Assembly: GCF_028368995.1 (NCBI RefSeq)
Contig: NZ_JAQNDL010000002.1
Coordinates: forward strand, 1,184,001 to 1,248,000
DNA: 64,000 nt
Direction of reading: 5' to 3'
From: Nannocystis bainbridge
GTDB taxonomy: Bacteria; Myxococcota_A; Polyangia; Nannocystales; Nannocystaceae
Shown: positions 1-60,345 of the stretch, piece after piece
Numbering within the stretch: the first letter of the stretch is position 1
How the letters are laid out: the number at the start of each line of letters is the position of its first letter
Position numbers and translations under genes: made by a program
The notes under the pieces: generated by a model
The model's input: the letters and a program-made list of their open reading frames with translations, nothing else
What the model was told of the DNA's origin: nothing
Database searches by the model: none

Positions 1-673
1 CGGCGGCGACGACGGCCTCGGCGACGGCGGCGACCCGCGGGACCAGCAGCTCGAAGTTGCGGGCCGCGCCGCCTTTGGGCTCGACCATCGAGAACTTGAG
101 GGTGACGCCGGCGAACCCGGCGACGAGGTCGACGAGGCCGCGCAGGTGGGCGACGTTCTGGCGGGTGACGACGCAGTTGACGGTGAGGTCGAGGTCGCGG
201 CCGGCGAGGTTGCGCAGGGCGGCCACGGCCTGATCGAAGGCGTCGCTGCGGACCAGGCGGTTGTGCACCGGGGCGCTGCCGCCGTGCAGCGAGAGGTAGA
301 CGTAGCGCAGGCGGTGGGCGAGGAGCTTGTCGGTGAGCTCGGGGTAGGCGAGCGCGCGGCCGTTGGTGACGAGGCCGAGGTCGAGGCCGAGGTCGGCGAT
401 CCGCGCGGCCCAGCGGAGCAGCTCGGGCCGGATCGTCGGCTCGCCGCCGGACAGGACGACCATGCTGTGTCCGAGCTCGGCGGCGCGGAGGATCTTGCGC
501 TCGACCTCCTCGGCGTCGCCGTCGATCGGGCGCACATCGAGCGTGTGACAAAAGGTGCAGTGCTCGTTGCAGCCGTAGCCGACCTTGATCAGCGCCTTGT
601 AGTCGCCGGGCTGGAGCCTCGGGGGCCGCGGGGGCCGCGGGCCGGCCCATGCGGGGTGGGAGCGATCGTCCAT
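1..673 (-). CDS. Radical SAM protein (HxsC-like), C-terminus runs off the left edge; absent from the ORF track
   Basis: Manual translation from ATG at 673: MDDRSHP...KALIKVGYGCNEHCTFCHTL (CxxxCxxC)...VVLSGGEPTIRP...LVTNGRALAY...VYLSLHGGSAPVHNRLV. Frame is open to the window edge. Confidence 0.9.
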   Translation of the reverse strand, partial: MDDRSHPAWAGPRPPRPPRLQPGDYKALIKVGYGCNEHCTFCHTLDVRPIDGDAEEVERKILRAAELGHSMVVLSGGEPTIRPELLRWAARIADLGLDLGLVTNGRALAYPELTDKLLAHRLRYVYLSLHGGSAPVHNRLVRSDAFDQAVAALRNLAGRDLDLTVNCVVTRQNVAHLRGLVDLVAGFAGVTLKFSMVEPKGGAARNFELLVPRVAAVAEAVVAA

Positions 674-713
674 GCGCGGCGCCGATGCTATCGCGTCCTC
701 GCGGCGCTCGGCA

Positions 714-836
714 GCGAGGGCTCGCGTAAAAGTCGGGGGCCGAGGTCGCAGCGGCGATGGGGGCGTGAGGGCGGCGAGGGCTCACGCACCACCTCGGGGC
801 CGAGGGTCGCGGCGGTGGTGGGGGCGTGAGGGCGGC
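714..836. repeat. Imperfect ~60-bp tandem duplication in the divergent intergenic region
   Basis: GGGGCCGAGG(G)TCGC..GGCG..GGGGGCGTGAGGGCGGC occurs at about 736-775 and 796-836. Confidence 0.6.
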
Positions 837-904
837 CGGCGCCCGGGTCGCCTTGACGCAGGCTGTGGGGGGCGGGTACGTTGGCTCCGATCAGGAACGA
901 CTGC

Positions 905-1393
905 ATGAAGTCTTCGCCGCGTGTCGCTCGTCGCAAGGTCCTCGCCGTCCTCGGAGTCGCCGCTGCCGGCGTGTCGACCGCGGTGTGCACGCTCCGCCCG
1001 CGCACGACGGCCCCGTCGTCCGCGGCGCCGCTGGCCGGTCTGGTCGGGCCGCTCGGCGAGTGGCGCGTCGAGCAGGTGCTGCCGCTGGTCGCAGGCGCGG
1101 TGCCGGTGCTGATGCGCACCCCCGCGGGCCAGAAGTTCCAGGTCGATCTGCTGCGCGCCGAGGACGAAGGGCCCCGCGCGGTCGCCCAGGCGGGCGGGCT
1201 GGCGCTGTACCTCGCCAACGGCGGCGCGGGCGACCGGCCGTCGACCGCGGTCGAGGAGCAGGGCGCCCGGGCGCTGGCGCAGCGGCTGGCGCAGCTGGCG
1301 AGCGAGCGCGGGGCGCCGGCGATCCCCGGGCTGCTGACGCTGTCCGAGCGGCTGGCGTCGCACCGCCAGGCCGTGCTGACGCCGTGGGCCTGA
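905..1393 (+). CDS. Hypothetical exported protein with a twin-arginine-like signal
   Basis: ATG 905 preceded by AGGA; MKSSPRVARRKVLAVLGVAAAGVSTAVC gives RR plus a hydrophobic stretch. Confidence 0.7.
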   Translation: MKSSPRVARRKVLAVLGVAAAGVSTAVCTLRPRTTAPSSAAPLAGLVGPLGEWRVEQVLPLVAGAVPVLMRTPAGQKFQVDLLRAEDEGPRAVAQAGGLALYLANGGAGDRPSTAVEEQGARALAQRLAQLASERGAPAIPGLLTLSERLASHRQAVLTPWA

Positions 1394-1408
1394 GCGGCGC
1401 CGCGGCGA

Positions 1409-1582
1409 GGCCCTGTCTGGAGGGACAGGGCGTTCGGGACATGTCGTATGGGGCAGGTGCGAAAGGTCCTGTCCGAACGGACAGGGCGCTGCGAACATGG
1501 CGCGAGGGACAGAGCGCCTGTTTGAAAGGACAGGCGTGGTGCGTGGTGCGTGAGGCAGGAGCGCCTGTCCGAAGGGACAGGT
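1409..1582. repeat. 14-bp-phased TGTCC-N4-GGACA-type array
   Basis: Cores (CCTG/CAGG/CATG/CAGA) at 1412, 1426, 1440, 1454, 1468, 1482, 1496, 1510; further pairs at 1517/1531 and 1564/1578. Confidence 0.85.
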
Positions 1583-2426
1583 GGATGTGAGCCTGGCGGG
1601 CGTCGAGCCGGCGAGCGCGGACGGCCAGAGCGCTCTCGCGGCGCTCGTGCGCGCGGGCGGCGGGACGCTGACGCTGGCGGGGGCCGAGGTGCCGGTGCTC
1701 GCGGCCTGGGCTGCGGCGGCGCGGGCGGCCGGGTTCGCGCGCGTGTGGGTCGCGGCAGGGCCGGCGGGGCTGACGGCGGAGGCGCTCGCGGGGCTCGCGG
1801 GCGCGGGGCTGGGCGGGCTGCGGCTGCGACTGTACGCGGCCGAGGCGGCGGCGCACGACTACCACGCCGGTCACGAGGGATCGTTCCGGGCCACGCTGGG
1901 GACGGCCCGGGCGGCCCGGGCGGCGCGGCTGCCGGTGACGGTGACGACGCCGCTGACGCGCTCCAATTCGCGGGTGATGGCGGCGCTGCCGGGGCTGCTC
2001 GCGGACATCGGCGCGCTCGGGTGGCAGGTAGCGACGGTGGCGGCGGGCGGCTCGGCGAACCACGGGGCGGTGGCGCCGCGGCTGGCGGTCGCGCTGCCCT
2101 ACGCGCTGCAGGCGATGGTGGCGGCGGAGCGCGTCGGTCTGTTGGCCGCGATCGCCGGGGCGCCGCTGTGCTTGCTCGGGCCGCTGCGCGATCGCTCGGT
2201 GGCGACGCCGGTGCGGGCGTTCGCCGACGCGTGCAGCGGTTGTGCGCTGCGGCCGGGCTGTCCGGGGCTCGACGCCGCGTACCTGGGCCGCTTCGGCGCG
2301 GGCGAGCTGGTGCCGGTGACGCAGGGCGGGGGGCCGGTGGCGAGCGGCGCGCGGTCGATGAAACTCCGGGACATGTTCTCGGGGCCATGGCTCGAGCTGT
2401 CGGAGGGCCCGTGCTGGCCGATCTGA
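1581..2426 (+). CDS. Degenerate radical SAM-like protein: no CxxxCxxC, retains the C-terminal Cys cluster
   Basis: Core resembles its neighbours (AHDYHAGHEGSFRATL, VTTPLTRSN, PLCLL) and the C-terminus is CSGCALRPGCPGLDAAYLGRFGAGEL. An in-frame TGA at 1551 prevents N-terminal extension. Confidence 0.75.
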   Translation: MDVSLAGVEPASADGQSALAALVRAGGGTLTLAGAEVPVLAAWAAAARAAGFARVWVAAGPAGLTAEALAGLAGAGLGGLRLRLYAAEAAAHDYHAGHEGSFRATLGTARAARAARLPVTVTTPLTRSNSRVMAALPGLLADIGALGWQVATVAAGGSANHGAVAPRLAVALPYALQAMVAAERVGLLAAIAGAPLCLLGPLRDRSVATPVRAFADACSGCALRPGCPGLDAAYLGRFGAGELVPVTQGGGPVASGARSMKLRDMFSGPWLELSEGPCWPI

Positions 2427-3577
2427 CGCTGCCGGATTTCGGCTCGGACACGGCGCGCGGGCTGTTCTCGATGGCGCTGCGGCGGGCGCTGACGGAGCTC
2501 GTGCGGCTGCCCGCGGGGCCGGGGCCGAACGGGGCGGCGTGGGGGCGGTTTGCGCCCGAGCTGCGGCGGATCGCCGGGCGAGCGCCGGGGGCTCTTGCGA
2601 GCGCGGTGCGACGGCCGACGATCGGGACGCTGATCCGCTGCCTGCGCGGGCGGCCCGACCCGGCGCTGCAGGGCGAGCTGCTGGCGACGCTGGCGCTCGA
2701 GCTGGCGGTGGCGGGTGTGCTCGAGGACAGGTGCGTCGTGCCGCAGCCGCCGGCCGAGGTGCTGTGCCTGGCCGCGCGCTGCGCCCTGCGGCCGCCGCCG
2801 GGCCCGCTGACGATCGGGCCGGGCGGGTGGCAGGCGGGCGGGGTCGGCGGGGCGATCGCAGAGGACTTCGGGACATGTGCTTCGGAGCATGTCGTGAAGG
2901 ACATGTACGAGAGCGTCGCGGGGCCGGTCGCGCTGGCGCTGCGGCGCGACAACAACCCGCTGGCGCAGCTCGAGGCGCACCCCGACAAGTCGGGCAGTGG
3001 GCTCGATCTCGGGGGGCAGCCGGTCGCGGCCTGGGTGGCGGGGCTGCGCGCGGGGCTCGAGCAAATCGCGGCGCACCTGCCGGGGCTGCGGGCAGAGCTC
3101 GACGTCGGGCTGTCGCTGATCGTGCCGGTCGGTCACGACCGAGAACGGCACCTGTCGGCGTCGTACCAGGAGGCGATCGGGACGGTCTACCTGAGCCTGC
3201 ACCCGAGCGCGCTCACCCTGGCGGAGGCGCTGATCCACGAGTTCTCGCACAACAAGCTCCACGCGCTGCTCGAGCAGGGGCCGCTGCTCGAGAACGCCTG
3301 GTCGCCGCTGTACGCCTCGCCGGTGCGGCCCGACCCGCGGCCGCTGCACGGGGTGCTGCTGGCGGCCCACGCGTTCCTGCCGGTGGCGGCGATGCTCGAG
3401 TCGATGCTGTCCTCCGGGACAGGCGAGGTCGAGGGCCGGCTGCAGCAGGTGGCGCGCGGCAACCACGAGGCGGTCGAGACGCTGCGGCTGCACGCGCGGC
3501 CGACGGCCCTGGGGGCGCCGCTGCTGGCCGAGATGACGCGGCTCGACGATCGCTTCCGGCGCTGGTGGGAGGGCTGA
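2411..3577 (+). CDS. HExxH-motif peptide-modification protein (aKG-HExxH beta-hydroxylase-like)
   Basis: LAEALIHEFSHNKLH, YASPVRPDPRPLHGVLLAAHAF and HLSASYQEAIGTVYL motifs. Start taken as GTG 2411 with GGAGG upstream; the track's longer 1550 start overlaps the previous gene. Confidence 0.88.
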   Translation: MLADLTLPDFGSDTARGLFSMALRRALTELVRLPAGPGPNGAAWGRFAPELRRIAGRAPGALASAVRRPTIGTLIRCLRGRPDPALQGELLATLALELAVAGVLEDRCVVPQPPAEVLCLAARCALRPPPGPLTIGPGGWQAGGVGGAIAEDFGTCASEHVVKDMYESVAGPVALALRRDNNPLAQLEAHPDKSGSGLDLGGQPVAAWVAGLRAGLEQIAAHLPGLRAELDVGLSLIVPVGHDRERHLSASYQEAIGTVYLSLHPSALTLAEALIHEFSHNKLHALLEQGPLLENAWSPLYASPVRPDPRPLHGVLLAAHAFLPVAAMLESMLSSGTGEVEGRLQQVARGNHEAVETLRLHARPTALGAPLLAEMTRLDDRFRRWWEG

Positions 3578-3578
3578 G

Positions 3579-4508
3579 GTGCCGGGGCTGCTCGACATGA
3601 TCCTCGGCTACGACTGCAACCTGTGGTGCGACTACTGCACGATCGGTCCGGAGCTGCGCGGGCGGGCGATGTCGACGGCGCACGCGCTGGCGTCGCTGCG
3701 GCAGGGGCGGGCGCAGGGGCTCGACGCGCTGTCGCTCACGGGCGGCGAGCCGACGATCCGCCCCGACCTGCTGACGATCGTGCGCGCCGGTCGGACGCTC
3801 GGGTTCGTCGACATCAAGGTGCAGTCGAACGGGCTGATGTACGCGCACGGCGACAACCTGGCGCGGCTGCTCGCGGCCGGGGCGACGCGGCTGCATGTGT
3901 CGGTGCACACCCACCGGGCCGACCGCTACGAGCAGCTGGTCCGAAGGACAGGTACGTACGCGGCCATGGTCGGCGGGCTGCAGCGGGCGGTCGAGAGCGG
4001 GGCGGCGCTGGTCGTCGACCTGATCGTCAAGCGCGATACGATGGCCGACCTGCCGGCGGCGATCGAGTGGCTGGGCGAGCTCGGGGTGCGCGCGGTCGAC
4101 CTCTGGTACGTGTCGCTGACCGACGCCAACGCGGCCCACCCCGAGTCGCTGCCGCGCATGACCGAGGCGCTGCCGTTCGTGAAGGAGGCGCTGGCGCGCG
4201 GGCGCGAGCAGGCGATGACGCTGCGCTCGCTGCACGTGCCGCGCTGTCTGTTGGGTGAGGATCATCCGCACGCGTGGGACCCCGGCGCCGACGAGGTGGT
4301 GGTGGTGACGCCGGAGGCCACGTTCGCGCTGAAGGACAGCCGCCTGGCCGGGCGGGTCAAGGTGCCGGCGTGCGCGGGCTGTCCTTTCGAGCAGGTCTGT
4401 CCGGGCGTGCGGCCGGACTACCTGGCGCGCTTCGGCGACGGCGAGATCGCGGCGGCGCGCGGACAAGCGGCCTCGCGCGGACCGACGCACCTGCCGATCG
4501 CGCCGTGA
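3579..4508 (+). CDS. Radical SAM protein (HxsC-like)
   Basis: CNLWCDYC, LTGGEPTIRP, QSNG, VSVH; C-terminal CAGCPFEQVCPGVRPDYLARFGDGE. Starts 1 nt after the HExxH stop. Confidence 0.92.
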   Translation: MPGLLDMILGYDCNLWCDYCTIGPELRGRAMSTAHALASLRQGRAQGLDALSLTGGEPTIRPDLLTIVRAGRTLGFVDIKVQSNGLMYAHGDNLARLLAAGATRLHVSVHTHRADRYEQLVRRTGTYAAMVGGLQRAVESGAALVVDLIVKRDTMADLPAAIEWLGELGVRAVDLWYVSLTDANAAHPESLPRMTEALPFVKEALARGREQAMTLRSLHVPRCLLGEDHPHAWDPGADEVVVVTPEATFALKDSRLAGRVKVPACAGCPFEQVCPGVRPDYLARFGDGEIAAARGQAASRGPTHLPIAP

Positions 4509-4510
4509 GG

Positions 4511-4641
4511 CGCGCGGGCAGGGGGCGACCGACCGAGCGCGCCATGACGACGCGCGGGCAGGGGGCGACCGACCGAGCGCGCCATGACGACGCGCGGGCA
4601 GGGGGCGACCGACCGAGCGCGCCATGACGACGCGCGGGCAG
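4511..4641. repeat. Perfect 40-bp tandem repeat, about 3.3 copies
   Basis: CGCGCGGGCAGGGGGCGACCGACCGAGCGCGCCATGACGA at 4511, 4551 and 4591, partial at 4631. Confidence 0.95.
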
Positions 4642-4771
4642 AGTGGCGTGCGGGCCGACTCTGCTGCCGATAGCGCGGGCAGGGGCGCTTTGTGGGCCGA
4701 CTCTGCTGCCGATCGCGTCGTGATGCCGCGGCGCTCGGCAGTTCGGTAGCGGTCGGGCGGCTCGCCGGGTT

Positions 4772-4837
4772 TCACATGTCGCGGAGGACATGCGCGAGAG
4801 GACATGTCCCCGACGACCTGGCGCCCGGGACATGTCC
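4772..4837. repeat. 14-bp-phased array
   Basis: Cores at 4775, 4789, 4803, 4817, 4831. Confidence 0.85.
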
Positions 4838-4852
4838 CTCGCTGAGGACGAC

Positions 4853-56000: not shown

Positions 56001-56130
56001 GGGACATCTGATTTCGAATCACGCGCGACGCTGTGCTGGAGGCATGTCGCGAAGACTCATGATGTCCTTCGGGACATGTCGTTAAAAAGTTTCTTCGGAC
56101 ATGTCCTCAAGGACATTTATGTTCATGTCG
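56001..56130. repeat. Degenerate 14-bp array cluster
   Basis: TGTCCTTCGGGACA (cores 56061/56075), TGTCCTCAAGGACA (56100/56114) and scattered CATG cores. Confidence 0.75.
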
Positions 56131-57004
56131 CGCGGGGCGGGCGAGTGATGACGAAGCGCGGGCAGGTGTCGGCGTCGTCCCTCAGCCAGCGCTGCGGGCC
56201 AGCGGCGGACTCGCGCAGGCGGTCGTCGGCGGCGCGCCACAGCTGATCGAGGTTGGCGGGCAACTGGCACGTCGCGGCGAACTGCGCCGGATCGGCGAGG
56301 TCGCGCCAGATCTGCTGGCAGTAGGCCAGCAGGTCGTTCTCGTAGAAGCGGAGCAGCGGGGCCGAGACGAGCGGCCCGCGGTGCCAGCGACGCAGGCCGT
56401 CGCCGAGGGCGCGGCCAAGCTCGAGCAGGAGCGGGCGCGGGACCCGGTGCGTGAGCAGCAGGTGCTTGCTCAGGTCGTGCTGGACGCCGAAGAAGTGGTA
56501 GTCGCGGCCGGCCCGCACGCGCCGCGGCTCGGGCAGGCGCAGGCGAGCGGCCGCGGCCAGGGCGGTGTAGTAGGTGCCGGCGCCGAGAGCGATCGGGACC
56601 TCGCCCCGCAGGTTGCCTTCGAGCCATGTCCGTTTGTTCATGGCCGAAGAGACAGCCTGATAGTAGCGCGGGCGCGGGCCGAGGTCGGGCACCCGCGCGA
56701 TCAGGCTGGCCGGGGCCGGGGCGCCGTCGACGAAGCCGCGCGCGTCCCAGGTGAAGCCGAGCCGCTGCAGCCAGGCGCGCACGGCCGGGTGACCGCCGAG
56801 GACGTCGACGCGCCCGACCACGGCGGCGTGGGCCCGGGTGTCGTGGGCGGGGAAGCGGAGCAGCAGGCCGTGGTCGTCACGCGCGAGCGCGGGCGCGACG
56901 CCGAAGCGGCGGCGGTAGGCGGCGATGAACGGGCGCAGCAAAGCGGCCTCGGCGTCGGGACCGGCCGGCTGGGGCAGCGGCGCGGTGGCGGCGTCGAGGA
57001 GCAT
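56123..57004 (-). CDS. Hypothetical protein downstream of the HxS-linked radical SAM gene
   Basis: ATG 57004 is 26 nt after the radical SAM stop; GC3-rich; contains DYHFFGVQHDLSKH and FYENDL. Confidence 0.7.
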   Translation of the reverse strand: MLLDAATAPLPQPAGPDAEAALLRPFIAAYRRRFGVAPALARDDHGLLLRFPAHDTRAHAAVVGRVDVLGGHPAVRAWLQRLGFTWDARGFVDGAPAPASLIARVPDLGPRPRYYQAVSSAMNKRTWLEGNLRGEVPIALGAGTYYTALAAAARLRLPEPRRVRAGRDYHFFGVQHDLSKHLLLTHRVPRPLLLELGRALGDGLRRWHRGPLVSAPLLRFYENDLLAYCQQIWRDLADPAQFAATCQLPANLDQLWRAADDRLRESAAGPQRWLRDDADTCPRFVITRPPRAT

Positions 57005-57030: not shown

Positions 57031-58083
57031 TCAGGGCACCGGGACGAATTCGTCCCAGCCGTAGCGGCGCAGGTAGTTGCCCCACACGCCCTCGCACACG
57101 GGCTCGTAGCGGCAAGCGGCGCACTCGGGCCGCTTGTGACGGGCGCTGTCGTCGAGGTCGGCGCGGCGCACGGCGACGAGCCCGCCGTCGGGCCCGGAGC
57201 GCCGCTCGGCCAGGCGATCGGCAGGGATGAGGTCGGTGTGCACGGCCACCGGCGGCTCGAAGTGGACGTAGTCCTCGACGTAGCCGCGGTTGTGATCGGG
57301 CAGCCGCGTGGTGGTGCACAGCGGGATGTCGACGAAGAACGCCTGGACCTGGCGCTCGCGCGCGGAGGCCTGCTGCAGGAACCCTTCGGCGGCCGCGGCG
57401 ATCTCGGTGTAGGTCGGGAACAGCTGGTCGAAGAAGGTGTTGGCGCGGCCGTTCGCCTGCATGACGTTGAACACGACCTGGTCGACCCCGCGCTCGCGCA
57501 GGAACACGTAGATCTCGTGGAGGTGCGGCAGGTTGCGCTTGGTGACGACGGTGCTGGTGTGCAGCGCGACGCCGAGCCGCTTGTAGCGGGCGATCGTGGC
57601 GATCCCGCCGACCGTCTGCTCGAAGCTGCCCGGGGTGCGGGTGAGGGCGTCGTGCAGCTTGGCGGTGTGGCCGTGGATGCTGACGTAGACCTTGTTGAGC
57701 CCGGCGGACAGCAAGAGGCGCGCGTAGCGGTCATAGCTGAGCGCGCGACCATTGGTCATCATGCTGATCTGGCGCGCACCTGCCTCTTTGGCCATCTTCA
57801 CCCAGACGGGCAGCCGCTGGTTGGTGGTCGGCTCGCCGGAGGTGAAGCACACCTCCTCGAAGGCGTCGTGCTGACCGAGGATCCAGCGCACGGTCTCGTC
57901 GGTGGTGGCGGAGTTGACGACGTAGCGGCCGTCGCGGTCCTCCTCCATGCAAAAGATGCAATTGTTGTTGCACACCGCGCCGGTCAGGATATGCACCCGC
58001 GGGGCCTTGCCGGCGATCCGCGCCTCGATCGCACCGCCAGCGGACGGGCGTTCACCAGGAGCCGTGGGAGCCGTGCGATCCAT
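57031..58083 (-). CDS. Radical SAM maturase (HxsC-like) next to the His-Xaa-Ser peptide
   Basis: CNNNCIFC, FTSGEPT, MTNGRALSY, VSIHGH; C-terminal CAACRYEPVCEGVWGNYLRRYGWDEF. Nearest in-frame ATGs are 58083 and 58101; a GTG near 57996 is an alternative. Confidence 0.92.
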   Translation of the reverse strand: MDRTAPTAPGERPSAGGAIEARIAGKAPRVHILTGAVCNNNCIFCMEEDRDGRYVVNSATTDETVRWILGQHDAFEEVCFTSGEPTTNQRLPVWVKMAKEAGARQISMMTNGRALSYDRYARLLLSAGLNKVYVSIHGHTAKLHDALTRTPGSFEQTVGGIATIARYKRLGVALHTSTVVTKRNLPHLHEIYVFLRERGVDQVVFNVMQANGRANTFFDQLFPTYTEIAAAAEGFLQQASARERQVQAFFVDIPLCTTTRLPDHNRGYVEDYVHFEPPVAVHTDLIPADRLAERRSGPDGGLVAVRRADLDDSARHKRPECAACRYEPVCEGVWGNYLRRYGWDEFVPVP

Positions 58084-58315
58084 GCGAGCCGTGCGATCCA
58101 TGCGAGCCGTGCGAACCGTGCGAGCCGTGCGAACCGTGCGACGCGTGACCGGGGTCGCCGGGGGCGAAGGTGGCCGCGGCGACGAGGTCGCCGCTCGGCA
58201 CGCCCGTCTCGGCGTACTCCAGCGCCTTGTCCGAGATCTCACGGTGTTCGGGTCCAAGCACGGCGCTGGCCTTCTTGCGAAAGGAGACGAGCTCGTCAGG
58301 ATCAGAGGCGGCCAT
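58052..58315 (-). CDS. His-Xaa-Ser repeat peptide (HxsA-like RiPP precursor), 87 aa
   Basis: MAASDPDELVSFRKK...ATFAPGDPG followed by HAS, nine HGS and W-stop (counted from nucleotides 58058-58147). Variation among the HGS repeats is synonymous in this frame. Confidence 0.88.
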   Translation of the reverse strand: MAASDPDELVSFRKKASAVLGPEHREISDKALEYAETGVPSGDLVAAATFAPGDPGHASHGSHGSHGSHGSHGSHGSHGSHGSHGSW

Positions 58316-58483
58316 GGCTGCACCATAGCCGAACCTCCGCGCGGCTCGCAGCACGAACCAGTGAGAACGCGCGGGGCCGGTGCGAAGCGGCGGTAGCACC
58401 GACCGAACGGCTCCAGAAGCGGCTTTGCCGACAACTTGACACCGCACGGGCCCCGCCCGTAGCGTCCCAGAAAGGCTCTACGC

Positions 58484-59404
58484 ATGCAGATTCGGGTACT
58501 TTCTCTCGCGCTCCTGGTCGCCGCGGGCTCGACGTCCGGCTGCAGCGACGACTTCGAGCTGCCCAACAGCTCCGGCGTACCGACGGCGCCCGACGGCGCG
58601 ACGACCACGACGACGGGCGAGACGCCGACGACCTCGACGCAGGGGACGACCGCCGTGGACACGACCACCACGGGCGATCCGACCGGCGAGCCGACCAGCT
58701 CGACCACCGACCCGACGGCGGGCGGCATGTGCAACATCTACGACCAGGACTGCTCCGGCGACGAGAAGTGCACCGCGTACGCGAGCCCCAACACGTTCAT
58801 CCCCGAGGGCATCAAGTGCGTGCCGGTGCCCGACAACCCGAAGGCCGCCAATGAGCCGTGCAACGTCGGTCCCGAGGGCCTCGGCGACGACAACTGCGAG
58901 CTCGGCACGGTCTGCCTCGACCTCGACTTCAACGGCTCGGGCTTCTGCCTGCCGTACTGCACCGGCGACTCGCAGAACCCGGTCTGCGAGGGCAGCGACA
59001 CCACCTGCGTTAAGCTGTTCTTCGGCTACGACTTCGGCAACTGCTTCAAGCAGTGCGACCCGCTGCTGCAGGACTGCGCCGAGGGCGAGGGCTGCTACAT
59101 GGACGCGATCAAGGTCGGCAACACGGGCTTCGTGTGCCTGCCGGTCGTGCAGGGCGGGGCCGAAGCGACCTTCCAGGACACGTGCATCGGCTGGTCGTCG
59201 TGCGCGCCCGGGTTCGCCTGTGTGTTCGACGCGCTGGTGCCCGAGTGCTCGTTCTCATACTGCTGCTCGCCGTGGTGCGACGTGTCCGAGGGCGACGACG
59301 CATGTCAGGCGCTCGACGAGAAGATGTCGTGCATCGCCTGGTACAGCGAGGGACAGGCGCCGCCGGGGTTCGAGAACGTCGGGGTCTGCGGGATCCCCGA
59401 GTAG
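58484..59404 (+). CDS. Cys-rich lipoprotein with Thr-rich linker (paralog of 22427-23401)
   Basis: TSGC lipobox, CNIYDQDC and CDPLLQDC modules, ends APPGFENVGVCGIPE. Confidence 0.88.
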   Translation: MQIRVLSLALLVAAGSTSGCSDDFELPNSSGVPTAPDGATTTTTGETPTTSTQGTTAVDTTTTGDPTGEPTSSTTDPTAGGMCNIYDQDCSGDEKCTAYASPNTFIPEGIKCVPVPDNPKAANEPCNVGPEGLGDDNCELGTVCLDLDFNGSGFCLPYCTGDSQNPVCEGSDTTCVKLFFGYDFGNCFKQCDPLLQDCAEGEGCYMDAIKVGNTGFVCLPVVQGGAEATFQDTCIGWSSCAPGFACVFDALVPECSFSYCCSPWCDVSEGDDACQALDEKMSCIAWYSEGQAPPGFENVGVCGIPE

Positions 59405-59625
59405 GGGGTCCCCGGCGTTTTTGGCCGGGGCCCGCGCAGTTTACGCTGTCAAATCAGCGTTTGGCCCTGGAAAAGGCGAGAACGCGGCGGAATTCGGGGT
59501 TTTCGCGCGATCGATGGCGAAGTGGCGTGAGTCGGTAAAGCTGCCGTAAACTCACCGCCCGGGCCGTCCCGGCGGTGTATCAAAAGCCGCCGGGGGCCAC
59601 TGCGGCCCCCACGGAGGAGACTCAG

Positions 59626-60345
59626 ATGCCAATGTCTCGGACAACTCGCCTCACCCTGCCGATGCTGCTCGCGCTGTTCGCGACGCAGCTTGCCGCCTGC
59701 GCGCCGACCATGTTCGACGACGCGACGGCGCTGGCCGTCGTAGGGGACCCGCCGCCGCTTCCGGCGCCGCCGCCGCCGCCGCCACCACCTCCCGAGCCGG
59801 AGCCGGAGCCGCCGAAGCGCGTGGTGGTCGAGGACAACAAGATCTCGATCAACGAGAAGATCCAGTTCGACCTCGACAAGGCGACGATCCGCCCCGAGTC
59901 GGACGGCCTGATGGCCGAGATCATCTCGGTCATCAAGGAGAACCCGCACATCAAGAAGATCGCCATCGAGGGCCACACCTCGAGCGAGGGCACCGACAAG
60001 CACAACCTCAAGCTGTCGGACGCGCGCGCCAAGGCGGTCATGGACTACTTCGTGAAGAAGGGCGCCCTGCCCAAGGAGATGTTCACGGCCAAGGGCTACG
60101 GCGAGACCCGCCTCATCGCCGACGAGTCGTCGGAAGAGGGCAAGGAGAAGAACCGTCGCGTCGAGTTCAACATCATCGAGCAGGACGTGACGAAGAAGAA
60201 GGTCGAGATCGACCCGAAGACCGGCCAGAAGAAGATCGTCGAGGAGTCGACCTCGACCGTCGAGAACCCGTCGCCCGAGACGCCGGCCGAGGGTGGTGCC
60301 GCCGCGCCTGCTCCCGCCGCCGACCCGGCCAAGGCCACCAAGTAA
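59626..60345 (+). CDS. OmpA/MotB C-terminal domain lipoprotein
   Basis: LAAC lipobox, poly-Pro, IQFDLDKATI, IEGHT, LSDARAKAV, NRRVEF. Confidence 0.93.
   Translation: MPMSRTTRLTLPMLLALFATQLAACAPTMFDDATALAVVGDPPPLPAPPPPPPPPPEPEPEPPKRVVVEDNKISINEKIQFDLDKATIRPESDGLMAEIISVIKENPHIKKIAIEGHTSSEGTDKHNLKLSDARAKAVMDYFVKKGALPKEMFTAKGYGETRLIADESSEEGKEKNRRVEFNIIEQDVTKKKVEIDPKTGQKKIVEESTSTVENPSPETPAEGGAAAPAPAADPAKATK

Follow-up and report, generated by a model that had tools for sequence, protein, structure and literature searches.

Described His-Xaa-Ser systems and the Nannocystis locus

The His-Xaa-Ser (HXS) system, whose components are HxsA, HxsB, HxsC and HxsD, reportedly goes back to an earlier source, Haft and Basu 2011. 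In this study it serves as the reference for a gene cluster at positions 1-4508 of a stretch of 64,000 nucleotides from Nannocystis bainbridge, hereafter the window (G000:C3:1184001-1248000, in a genome of 11,048,555 bases and five contigs; G-numbers denote genomes, G000 being that of the window, and L-numbers denote loci). Li et al. (Nat Commun 2026, PMC13128918) described HXS as an antiphage system with a protein matured by radical S-adenosylmethionine (SAM) enzymes; according to the main text, HxsB, HxsC and HxsD mature HxsA, which reaches the periplasm, 99.7% of the HXS systems occur in Pseudomonadota, and more than 99.8% have four genes. The main text contains none of the words Myxococc-, HExxH, hydroxylase and methyltransferase, and the supplement of that article may list rare gene orders. 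The family of aKG-HExxH (alpha-ketoglutarate-dependent HExxH) hydroxylases includes BpmH, PflC/PosC and ChlH, the last an HExxH domain fused to radical SAM cyclophane synthases; in the part of the source covered here, ChlH hydroxylates His and Asp in a peptide already bearing a cyclophane, and PflC and PosC hydroxylate Gln (PMC12636437).

We consider it likely, with good confidence, that the cluster at 1-4508 is the tailoring half of a myxobacterial 'type 4' HXS maturation system with HxsA4 as its substrate, and we infer its action on HxsA4 from gene neighbourhood and co-occurrence. Genes at 1-4508 were called from the open reading frame (ORF) listing, third-position GC periodicity and the 14 kb to the left of the window (L009). 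The bit-score cut-offs of the family models were 40 for TIGR04267, 500 for NF038332, 55 for NF038313, 267.9 for TIGR03977, 370 for TIGR03978 and 50 for TIGR03976. The genes of the putative system in this genome are the following (coordinates of the window unless a contig is given).

1..673, minus strand: gene A, the N-terminal 224 amino acids (aa) of a 625-aa fusion protein; the full gene is G000:C3:1182796-1184673 (L009 12796-14673)
905..1393, plus strand: gene B, 162 aa, from ATG 905 (alternative TTG 881); a twin-arginine translocation (Tat) signal, then an alpha+beta domain of about 110 aa
1581..2426, plus strand: gene C, 281 aa, degenerate HxsC-like protein without CxxxCxxC and with GGEP changed to AGAEV
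2387..3577, plus strand: gene D, aKG-HExxH-type peptide hydroxylase (HEFSH), overlapping the end of gene C
3579..4508, plus strand: gene E, 309 aa, intact radical SAM enzyme of the HxsC-like type; it has CNLWCDYC and the C-terminal Cys motif
56126..56956, minus strand: conserved gene that follows HxsC4, its product having about 277 aa and belonging to no known family
57031..58050, minus strand: HxsC4 radical SAM maturase, its start probably overlapping the end of HxsA4
58055..58315, minus strand: HxsA4 precursor, 87 aa from ATG, in an ORF that extends to 58447
G000:C3:1603574-1604089: HxsD, TIGR03976 55.3 bits
G000:C3:1604310-1605818: HxsB, TIGR03978 573.8 bits, 362 kb from HxsA4
C3 333-338 kb: two HxsC-like enzymes, one of them fused to a B12-binding radical SAM domain

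Like the studied HXS, this genome encodes a His-Xaa-Ser repeat protein, HxsB, HxsD and an HxsC-type enzyme, and in relatives these genes form one operon. The myxobacterial precursor differs in consisting of a short leader, 10-64 identical HGS units and a Trp, the gene order is D-B-A-C instead of D-B-C-A, HxsC4 stays under the canonical HxsC cut-off (94.6 vs 267.9 bits), and in this genus the genes are spread over 1.27 Mb. As many as five further HxsC-like genes come in addition, along with a hydroxylase of the aKG-HExxH type, a methyltransferase module and a protein with a Tat signal. The antiphage activity was reported for the studied system; for the myxobacterial variant it would be a candidate role. 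As compared to ChlH, BpmH and PflC/PosC, gene D belongs to the same family and likewise lies beside radical SAM peptide maturases; however, unlike ChlH as it is presented in the covered part of its source, it is a stand-alone protein, its partners are of the HxsB/HxsC type, and its putative substrate is a His-Gly-Ser repeat. The far locus at 56-58 kb of the window matches both NCBIfam models, HxsA4 (NF038313) and HxsC4 (NF038332, which is named 'rare'), but the two models account for no more than the precursor and a single maturase, and the wider gene set and its scattering were captured by none of the models searched. The HXS system and the HxsA4/HxsC4 models are already known. In the literature searched, supplementary files excepted, no described HExxH enzyme tied to an HxS system was found, nor any description of the enlarged myxobacterial set, its aKG-HExxH link or its dispersal.

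Gene neighbourhoods and co-occurrence in relatives

A scan of one genome per species carrying gene D gave 74 seeded loci, and among the compared loci the closest relatives of the window were Nannocystis species. An (HGS)n-W precursor lies within 10 kb of the D ortholog in 15 of the 74 (L015, L018, L021-L024, L027, L029, L032, L033, L036, L057, L061, L077 and L078), and HxsB together with HxsD lies within that distance in 20, with scores in L015 of 552.8 bits (TIGR03978) and 63.9 bits (TIGR03976). The string A-HxsD-HxsB-HxsA4-HxsC4, headed by A, is divergent from B-C-D in L029, L036 and L077, and L015 has the same order plus an inserted CotH gene. L022, L024 and L027 carry the order free-standing A C-terminal module-HxsD-HxsB-HxsA4-(E-type)-(R682-type), co-directional and in one apparent operon, which is divergent from D and has gene B nearby in all three loci and gene C in L024 and L027. 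In L032, L057 and L078 an HxsC4 ortholog directly adjoins D, and in other lineages the methyltransferase module that is fused into A stands beside D as a gene of its own. Thus, for each type of gene in the window cluster there is a locus in which it lies next to an HGS precursor, and the arrangements number at least three. The D-then-E order was found only in the Nannocystis loci (L010-L017, L049).

Co-occurrence was counted in two sets of genomes, namely 47 genomes behind the longer loci, all of which have a D ortholog, and a phylum sample of 401 genomes, whose same-class part comprises about 80 (families f1-f15 sum to 78); both sets consist of related genomes and not of independent samples. 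HxsC4 scores over the cut-off in 40 of the 47 D-ortholog genomes, as against 23/401 in the phylum sample, and full-length A is present in 35/47. The distance between A and HxsC4 in the 33 genomes with both is at most 25 kb in 13, 58-65 kb in five close congeners and 1.06 Mb in one, and the two genes lie on different contigs in the remaining 14. Within the class, the HxsC4 genomes have D in 13/15 cases and A or its C-terminal module in 15/15; D occurs without HxsC4 once (G152) and the A module without HxsC4 twice (G152 and G407). In families f2, f3 and f8 the distribution is patchy and matches genome by genome.

An earlier note on this DNA, made from the window alone, had proposed a split biosynthetic system acting on the (HGS)n peptide, and had named contiguity in related genomes and joint occurrence of the two loci as its tests. 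Both tests came out in its favour, with at least three gene orders, the precursor in 15/74 loci and the counts given above, and the split proved wider than had been thought. It had also seen no precursor near the cluster, which agrees with our search, in which no HxS-repeat ORF was found nearby. Its alternative that a second precursor might lie left of the window fails, since the sequence there holds the remainder of gene A and the genes for a GST, an MNIO and a protein of 339 aa, with no precursor.

Organization of the cluster and of the scattered Hxs genes

The proteins A, C, E and HxsC4 share a C-terminal cysteine motif. In a four-protein alignment they are 28-30% identical to the first sequence, and PxC (C243), C285, C288, C294, G296, Y301, G306 and E309 are invariant across the four. 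The regular expression C..C.{5}C.G.{4}[YFH].{4}G..E matched exactly four proteins in a six-frame search of the whole genome, which are A, C, E and HxsC4, and gave 0 matches in the reversed translations of the genome; the likeness is therefore homology and not chance. By BLASTP, gene C matches HxsC4 at E = 3e-09, and HxsC4 matches A at 1.8e-19 and E at 1.5e-17 by tblastn. For a careful maximum-likelihood tree, this genome together with 28 related loci supplied 79 HxsC-like domains, each scoring at least 95 and spanning 200 or more model positions. Six of these domains come from this genome, namely A, C, E, HxsC4 and the two at 0.33 Mb, and they fell into six separate clades with support of at least 99/98, all shared with relatives, and so these genes are old paralogs rather than recent copies.

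The alignment bears out the earlier note, which had ascribed the motif CxxC-x5-CxG-x4-Y-x4-G-xx-E to the genes at 1581, 3579 and 57031, and adds gene A to the list; the likeness of the gene at 1-673 to HxsC4 in GEPT, TNGRAL and VY.S.HG was seen again, every gene lies at the coordinates that the note had given, and the tree it had called for shows related but separate old clades. Its description of the cluster as three radical SAM-type genes plus an HExxH enzyme holds for A, E and the TIGR04267 hydroxylase; gene C turned out to be degenerate, and 1-673 is only the start of a fusion gene. The note had overlooked a real gene, the Tat-signal gene at 905-1393, which is recognized by coding periodicity and its twin-arginine signal.

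Gene A encodes, in this order, an HxsC-like radical SAM domain (CNEHCTFC), the C-terminal Cys motif, a middle CxxC domain and a class-I methyltransferase, and the Cys motif sits left of the window. With the triad and Pfam matches to Radical_SAM (82.2 bits) and Methyltransf_25 (56.2 bits), it belongs to the radical SAM superfamily (PF04055). Its best NCBIfam match is HxsC4 (NF038332) at 100.2 bits, the canonical TIGR03977 gives 81.8 bits, and both are under the cut-offs; in the tree it forms its own clade (support 99/100). The ratio of nonsynonymous to synonymous substitution rates (dN/dS), determined against four congeners for all genes mentioned here, is 0.30-0.34. The genes left of the window, downstream of A, are as follows.

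L009 10373-12720 (G000:C3:1180373-1182720), co-directional with gene A: GST, divergent MNIO and a 339-aa protein

The MNIO scores 74 bits with PF05114 and 63 bits with the BufB model, whose cut-off is 310, and the 339-aa protein was assigned to no family; no precursor is visible in this stretch. Among the 74 seeded loci the neighbourhood is confined to L010-L014, i.e., it is genus-specific. These three genes were considered as parts of the system and rejected, as the MNIO was found in 1/5 other system-bearing genomes and there on a different contig.

The reading frame of gene B has a third-position GC content of 0.9-1.0, and its N-terminal twin-arginine signal consists of RRKVL and a hydrophobic stretch; the RR motif occurs in 23/23 ORFs and is invariant in 21/21 aligned homologs, and export of the protein is predicted from it. 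No match was found in Pfam, NCBIfam or PADLOC, and 40/40 relatives are annotated as 'hypothetical'. The mature core is a compact domain with a predicted local distance difference test score (pLDDT) above 90 in the AF2 model, with no repeat or leader/core layout. Foldseek found nothing in the PDB at E <= 0.001 (all E >= 0.64), the best wide VIA-align match (Z 6.1, root-mean-square deviation 9.3) is in the chance range, and the best Atlas match, 0.78, is to an unnamed cluster. Gene B has a dN/dS of 0.21-0.40 and adjoins a radical SAM gene in 23/23 loci that carry it.

Gene C retains the four Cys of the C-terminal motif, but it has no CxxxCxxC triad and no match to Pfam Radical_SAM, so that it does not work as a radical SAM enzyme and falls outside PF04055; no CxxxCxxC remnant was found in frame upstream. 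It scores 21.9 bits with NF038332 and 25.6 bits with TIGR03977, both under the cut-offs. Among the syntenic orthologs examined, the triad is kept in 11 loci outside Nannocystis and gone in L010-L016, L018 and L061. The C-type clade has a support of 100/98, and gene C is the fastest-evolving gene of the cluster, being 60-70% identical between species vs 84-93% for its neighbours.

Gene D scores 99.1 bits with TIGR04267 and is a member of that family, and H272-E273-x-x-H276 is invariant in 26/26 orthologs. Since the codon at 2423 of its frame is CTG, the start is probably ATG 2387 or GTG 2411. The profile of its orthologs matched the solved chains 22nu_A (E 8.5e-18) and ChlH 8s5f_A (E 4.8e-07), and its dN/dS is 0.29-0.37; a complex prediction of D with HxsA4 gave a score of 0.00, which is evidence neither way. 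Gene E starts 1 base past the stop of gene D, so that C, D and E overlap or abut as in a translationally coupled operon. E belongs to PF04055 (Pfam Radical_SAM 67.1 bits) and stays under the cut-offs of NF038332 (74.1 bits) and TIGR03977 (49.5 bits). Its clade (100/98) takes in the radical SAM gene directly after the HGS precursor in L022 and L024, and its dN/dS is 0.17-0.28.

At the far locus, HxsA4 scores 80.8 bits with NF038313 (window 58052-58447) and qualifies as an HxsA protein. It is made up of a leader (..LVSFRKK..EHREISDKA..), H-A-S, nine HGS and a final Trp, which makes ten H-x-S units. The number of units among 12 aligned homologs ranges from 10 (window, L057) to 64 (L027), the terminal W is present in all, and the leader keeps the motifs LP(S/T)F..K and ..ERE(I/L)SD(K/R)A. 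HxsA4 has no signal peptide and no detected peptidoglycan-binding domain, and its sole Pfam row is a weak Collagen repeat (20.6 bits, cut-off 27.2); PADLOC matched none of its models to HxsA4 and gave weak viperin/methyltransferase-like rows and no HXS model. HxsC4 reaches 609.6 bits with NF038332 and only 94.6 bits with the canonical TIGR03977, and so it is HxsC in the sense of the type-4 variant only; its clade has a support of 100/100. The product of the conserved gene at 56126..56956 had no match in Pfam, NCBIfam or PADLOC and is 46% identical to that of the gene downstream of HxsC4 in L015. A Cys-rich lipoprotein-like gene at 58484-59404 lies beside HxsA4 and is followed by an OmpA-like lipoprotein gene at window 59575-60345; a similar Cys-rich gene (L036 394-1629) stands beside HxsC4, on the other side of the operon.

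By tblastn, the parts of the system were located on C3 at 333-338 kb, 1182.8-1188.5 kb (A-E), 1240.1-1242.4 kb (HxsA4, HxsC4 and the downstream gene) and 1603.6-1605.8 kb. Measured from the A-E cluster, the distances to the other parts, all of them on this contig, are 56 kb, 420 kb and 850 kb, HxsD and HxsB lying 362 kb beyond HxsA4 and the two HxsC-like enzymes 850 kb to the other side, with a total spread of 1.27 Mb. These Hxs genes do not form the compact four-gene operon HxsD-B-C-A but lie apart at 1.241 Mb and 1.604 Mb of C3, and no precursor follows HxsB at 1603.6-1605.8 kb. In the congeners G001-G005 the distance from A to HxsC4 is 58-65 kb and HxsB is 94-97% identical; HxsC4 and HxsB are 344-397 kb apart in G001, G002 and G005, where both are on one contig. 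Because the dN/dS of A, B, D and E is 0.17-0.40 against the four congeners, the scattered parts are maintained. At 10 kb from HxsD/HxsB there is a 391-aa radical SAM gene (G000:C3:1592169-1593344; CNHFCGFC, C-terminal CGPCRLRPICGG), whose DNA is 68% identical to window 144-460. The genome also has a second compact His-Xaa-Ser system.

G000:C2:1612785-1616322: HxsB-like (559 aa), HxsC-like (398 aa) and HxsA genes; in the HxsA (G000:C2:1612785-1613438, 217 aa) a signal peptide is combined with HRS/HSS repeats

The intergenic regions 674-904, 1394-1580 and 4509-4852 contain no conserved small ORFs but repeats instead. Three perfect CCTGTC-N6-GACAGG palindromes and one imperfect copy fill the spacer between B and C (window 1412-1581), the last of them touching the start codon of gene C, and the window holds 4 vs 0.04 expected. 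They were considered as operators of the cluster and rejected, as there are 148 copies genome-wide, in 10 small clusters, and the site is not conserved across species; the palindrome is a dispersed REP-like (repetitive extragenic palindromic) element. A 40-bp tandem repeat with 3.7 copies and 96% match lies at window 4494-4641, right after gene E, and a run of short GGACATG-type repeats lies at window 4774-4850, before uvrA.

Proposed maturation pathway, alternatives and meaning

The chemical steps, their order and the biological role set out here are a proposal drawn from the gene identities, homology, synteny, co-occurrence and conservation described above. The likely ancestral layout would have been two divergent operons, [A-HxsD-HxsB-HxsA4-HxsC4] and [B-C-D], of which the first broke up in this genus, while A kept the divergent promoter region with B-C-D-E. 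As in the studied HXS, the core radical maturation of the repeats would fall to HxsB, HxsD and HxsC4, and A and E, as additional radical SAM enzymes from that lineage, would act on these repeats too. With Fe(II) and 2-oxoglutarate, D would hydroxylate a residue of the repeat, most likely at the beta-carbon of His by analogy with ChlH, and the methyltransferase module of A may methylate the product. The Tat signal of gene B suggests that a folded product ends in the periplasm, and such a Tat-routed partner fits, by analogy, the periplasmic destination of mature HxsA given for the studied HXS in the main text of its description (PMC13128918). Gene C would be a dead enzyme retained for a scaffolding role, or it would be decaying; one possibility is that gene E has taken over the catalytic role of gene C in this genus, C being left as a scaffold or decaying. 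The system may serve in defence, like HXS, or its His-rich polymer may bind metal or DNA.

Several observations weigh against the assignment of the cluster to HxsA4. No D was found with a profile of 26 orthologs in the HxsC4-bearing genomes G257, G317, G121, G136 and G191, which are 94-95% complete, nor with a single-protein search in G278, which also bears HxsC4. D-like proteins occur in 87 of the 401 genomes of the phylum sample, and HxsC4 passes its cut-off in only 17 of these 87; family f23 has D in 26/29 genomes and HxsC4 in 3/29; and roughly 35 of the 74 seeded loci, most of them from Polyangiaceae, contain none of the query genes within 10 kb of D. The kinship of the genomes makes the co-occurrence counts overstate the evidence. 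Gene C is under relaxed constraint, with a dN/dS of 0.50-0.68 vs 0.17-0.40 for its neighbours, gene B with its constant radical SAM neighbour could itself be a substrate, and a second HxsA exists in the genome, on contig C2. On these grounds we take the hydroxylase D to be accessory to the system and not obligatory, and A to be its tighter companion. In Chondromyces A is still 1.1 kb from HxsC4. In Chondromyces apiculatus (L019 8339-9955) and Minicystis rosea (L044 8323-9969), D comes directly after a conserved gene for 538-548 aa that is unrelated to this system, and a HAD-like gene, and there is no radical SAM gene within 10 kb of D in these two loci.

The genes A-E might form an independent modification system, whose substrate would most plausibly be the Tat protein B, and their nearness to Hxs genes would then come from radical SAM paralogs clustering together and not from a substrate in common. 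Folding or maturation of Tat substrates takes place in the cytoplasm and precedes their export, gene B is a conserved member of the cluster that adjoins a radical SAM gene wherever it was found, and D and HxsC4 are each found without the other. We nevertheless regard this as improbable, because one apparent operon in L022, L024 and L027 unites the A module and an E-type enzyme with HxsD, HxsB and the HGS precursor, A heads the HxsD-HxsB-HxsA4-HxsC4 string in L029, L036 and L077, and A or its C-terminal module accompanies HxsC4 in every same-class genome; besides, HxsC4 is the only other protein encoded in this genome that shares the strict Cys motif of A, C and E, and gene B is a compact, confidently folded domain without the layout of a repeat or a leader/core precursor. 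That the cluster is a decaying relic, its role lost after the operon break-up, is very unlikely. The lost triad, raised dN/dS and low identity of gene C, and the position of the cluster apart from the precursor and the core enzymes, would suit such a history, but A, B, D and E are intact and constrained, with CxxxCxxC in A and E and HExxH in D, the genes C-D-E overlap or abut like a translationally coupled operon, and the four-locus layout is kept in other Nannocystis species. It is less likely still, to the point of being hardly credible, that the cluster serves the compact HxsB-HxsC-HxsA operon on contig C2 instead of HxsA4; the second HxsA does adjoin HxsC-like and HxsB-like genes, but this operon lies on a different contig, its radical SAM gene lacks the strict motif of A, C, E and HxsC4, and all precursors beside D, A, B, C or E orthologs are of the (HGS)n-W type.

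A different use of the same substrate is conceivable but rather unlikely, in which (HGS)n would be a multi-copy feedstock: its units would be cross-linked by HxsB/HxsC-type enzymes, hydroxylated or methylated by D and A and cut at Gly by HExxH-catalysed alpha-hydroxylation, releasing many copies of a small His-derived molecule such as a metal binder or a cofactor, or else the intact modified polymer would be carried folded to the periplasm on the Tat protein B. The 10-64 perfectly identical repeat units speak for this reading, as does the oxidative backbone cleavage by PflC/PosC, which, in the part of the source covered here, is favoured by small residues such as Ala and Gly (PMC12636437). Also in its favour are the lack of a signal peptide in HxsA4 and the invariant Tat motif of gene B.

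Under the preferred reading, in which the cluster probably tailors HxsA4, the variant stands out by its very simple and highly repetitive substrate, by as many as six radical SAM domains that are paralogs of each other, by a hydroxylase of the aKG-HExxH type, by a methyltransferase module and by a partner with a Tat signal, and it would give the HExxH hydroxylases a new class of partners. The chemistry of HXS shows as a reported +8 Da change, and the simple repetitive substrate of the myxobacteria would be a good one for working out how HxsB/HxsC-type enzymes act on His-x-Ser. One maturation pathway would be kept functional across four loci and 1.27 Mb, and genome mining that is based on gene clusters would split or miss such a pathway.

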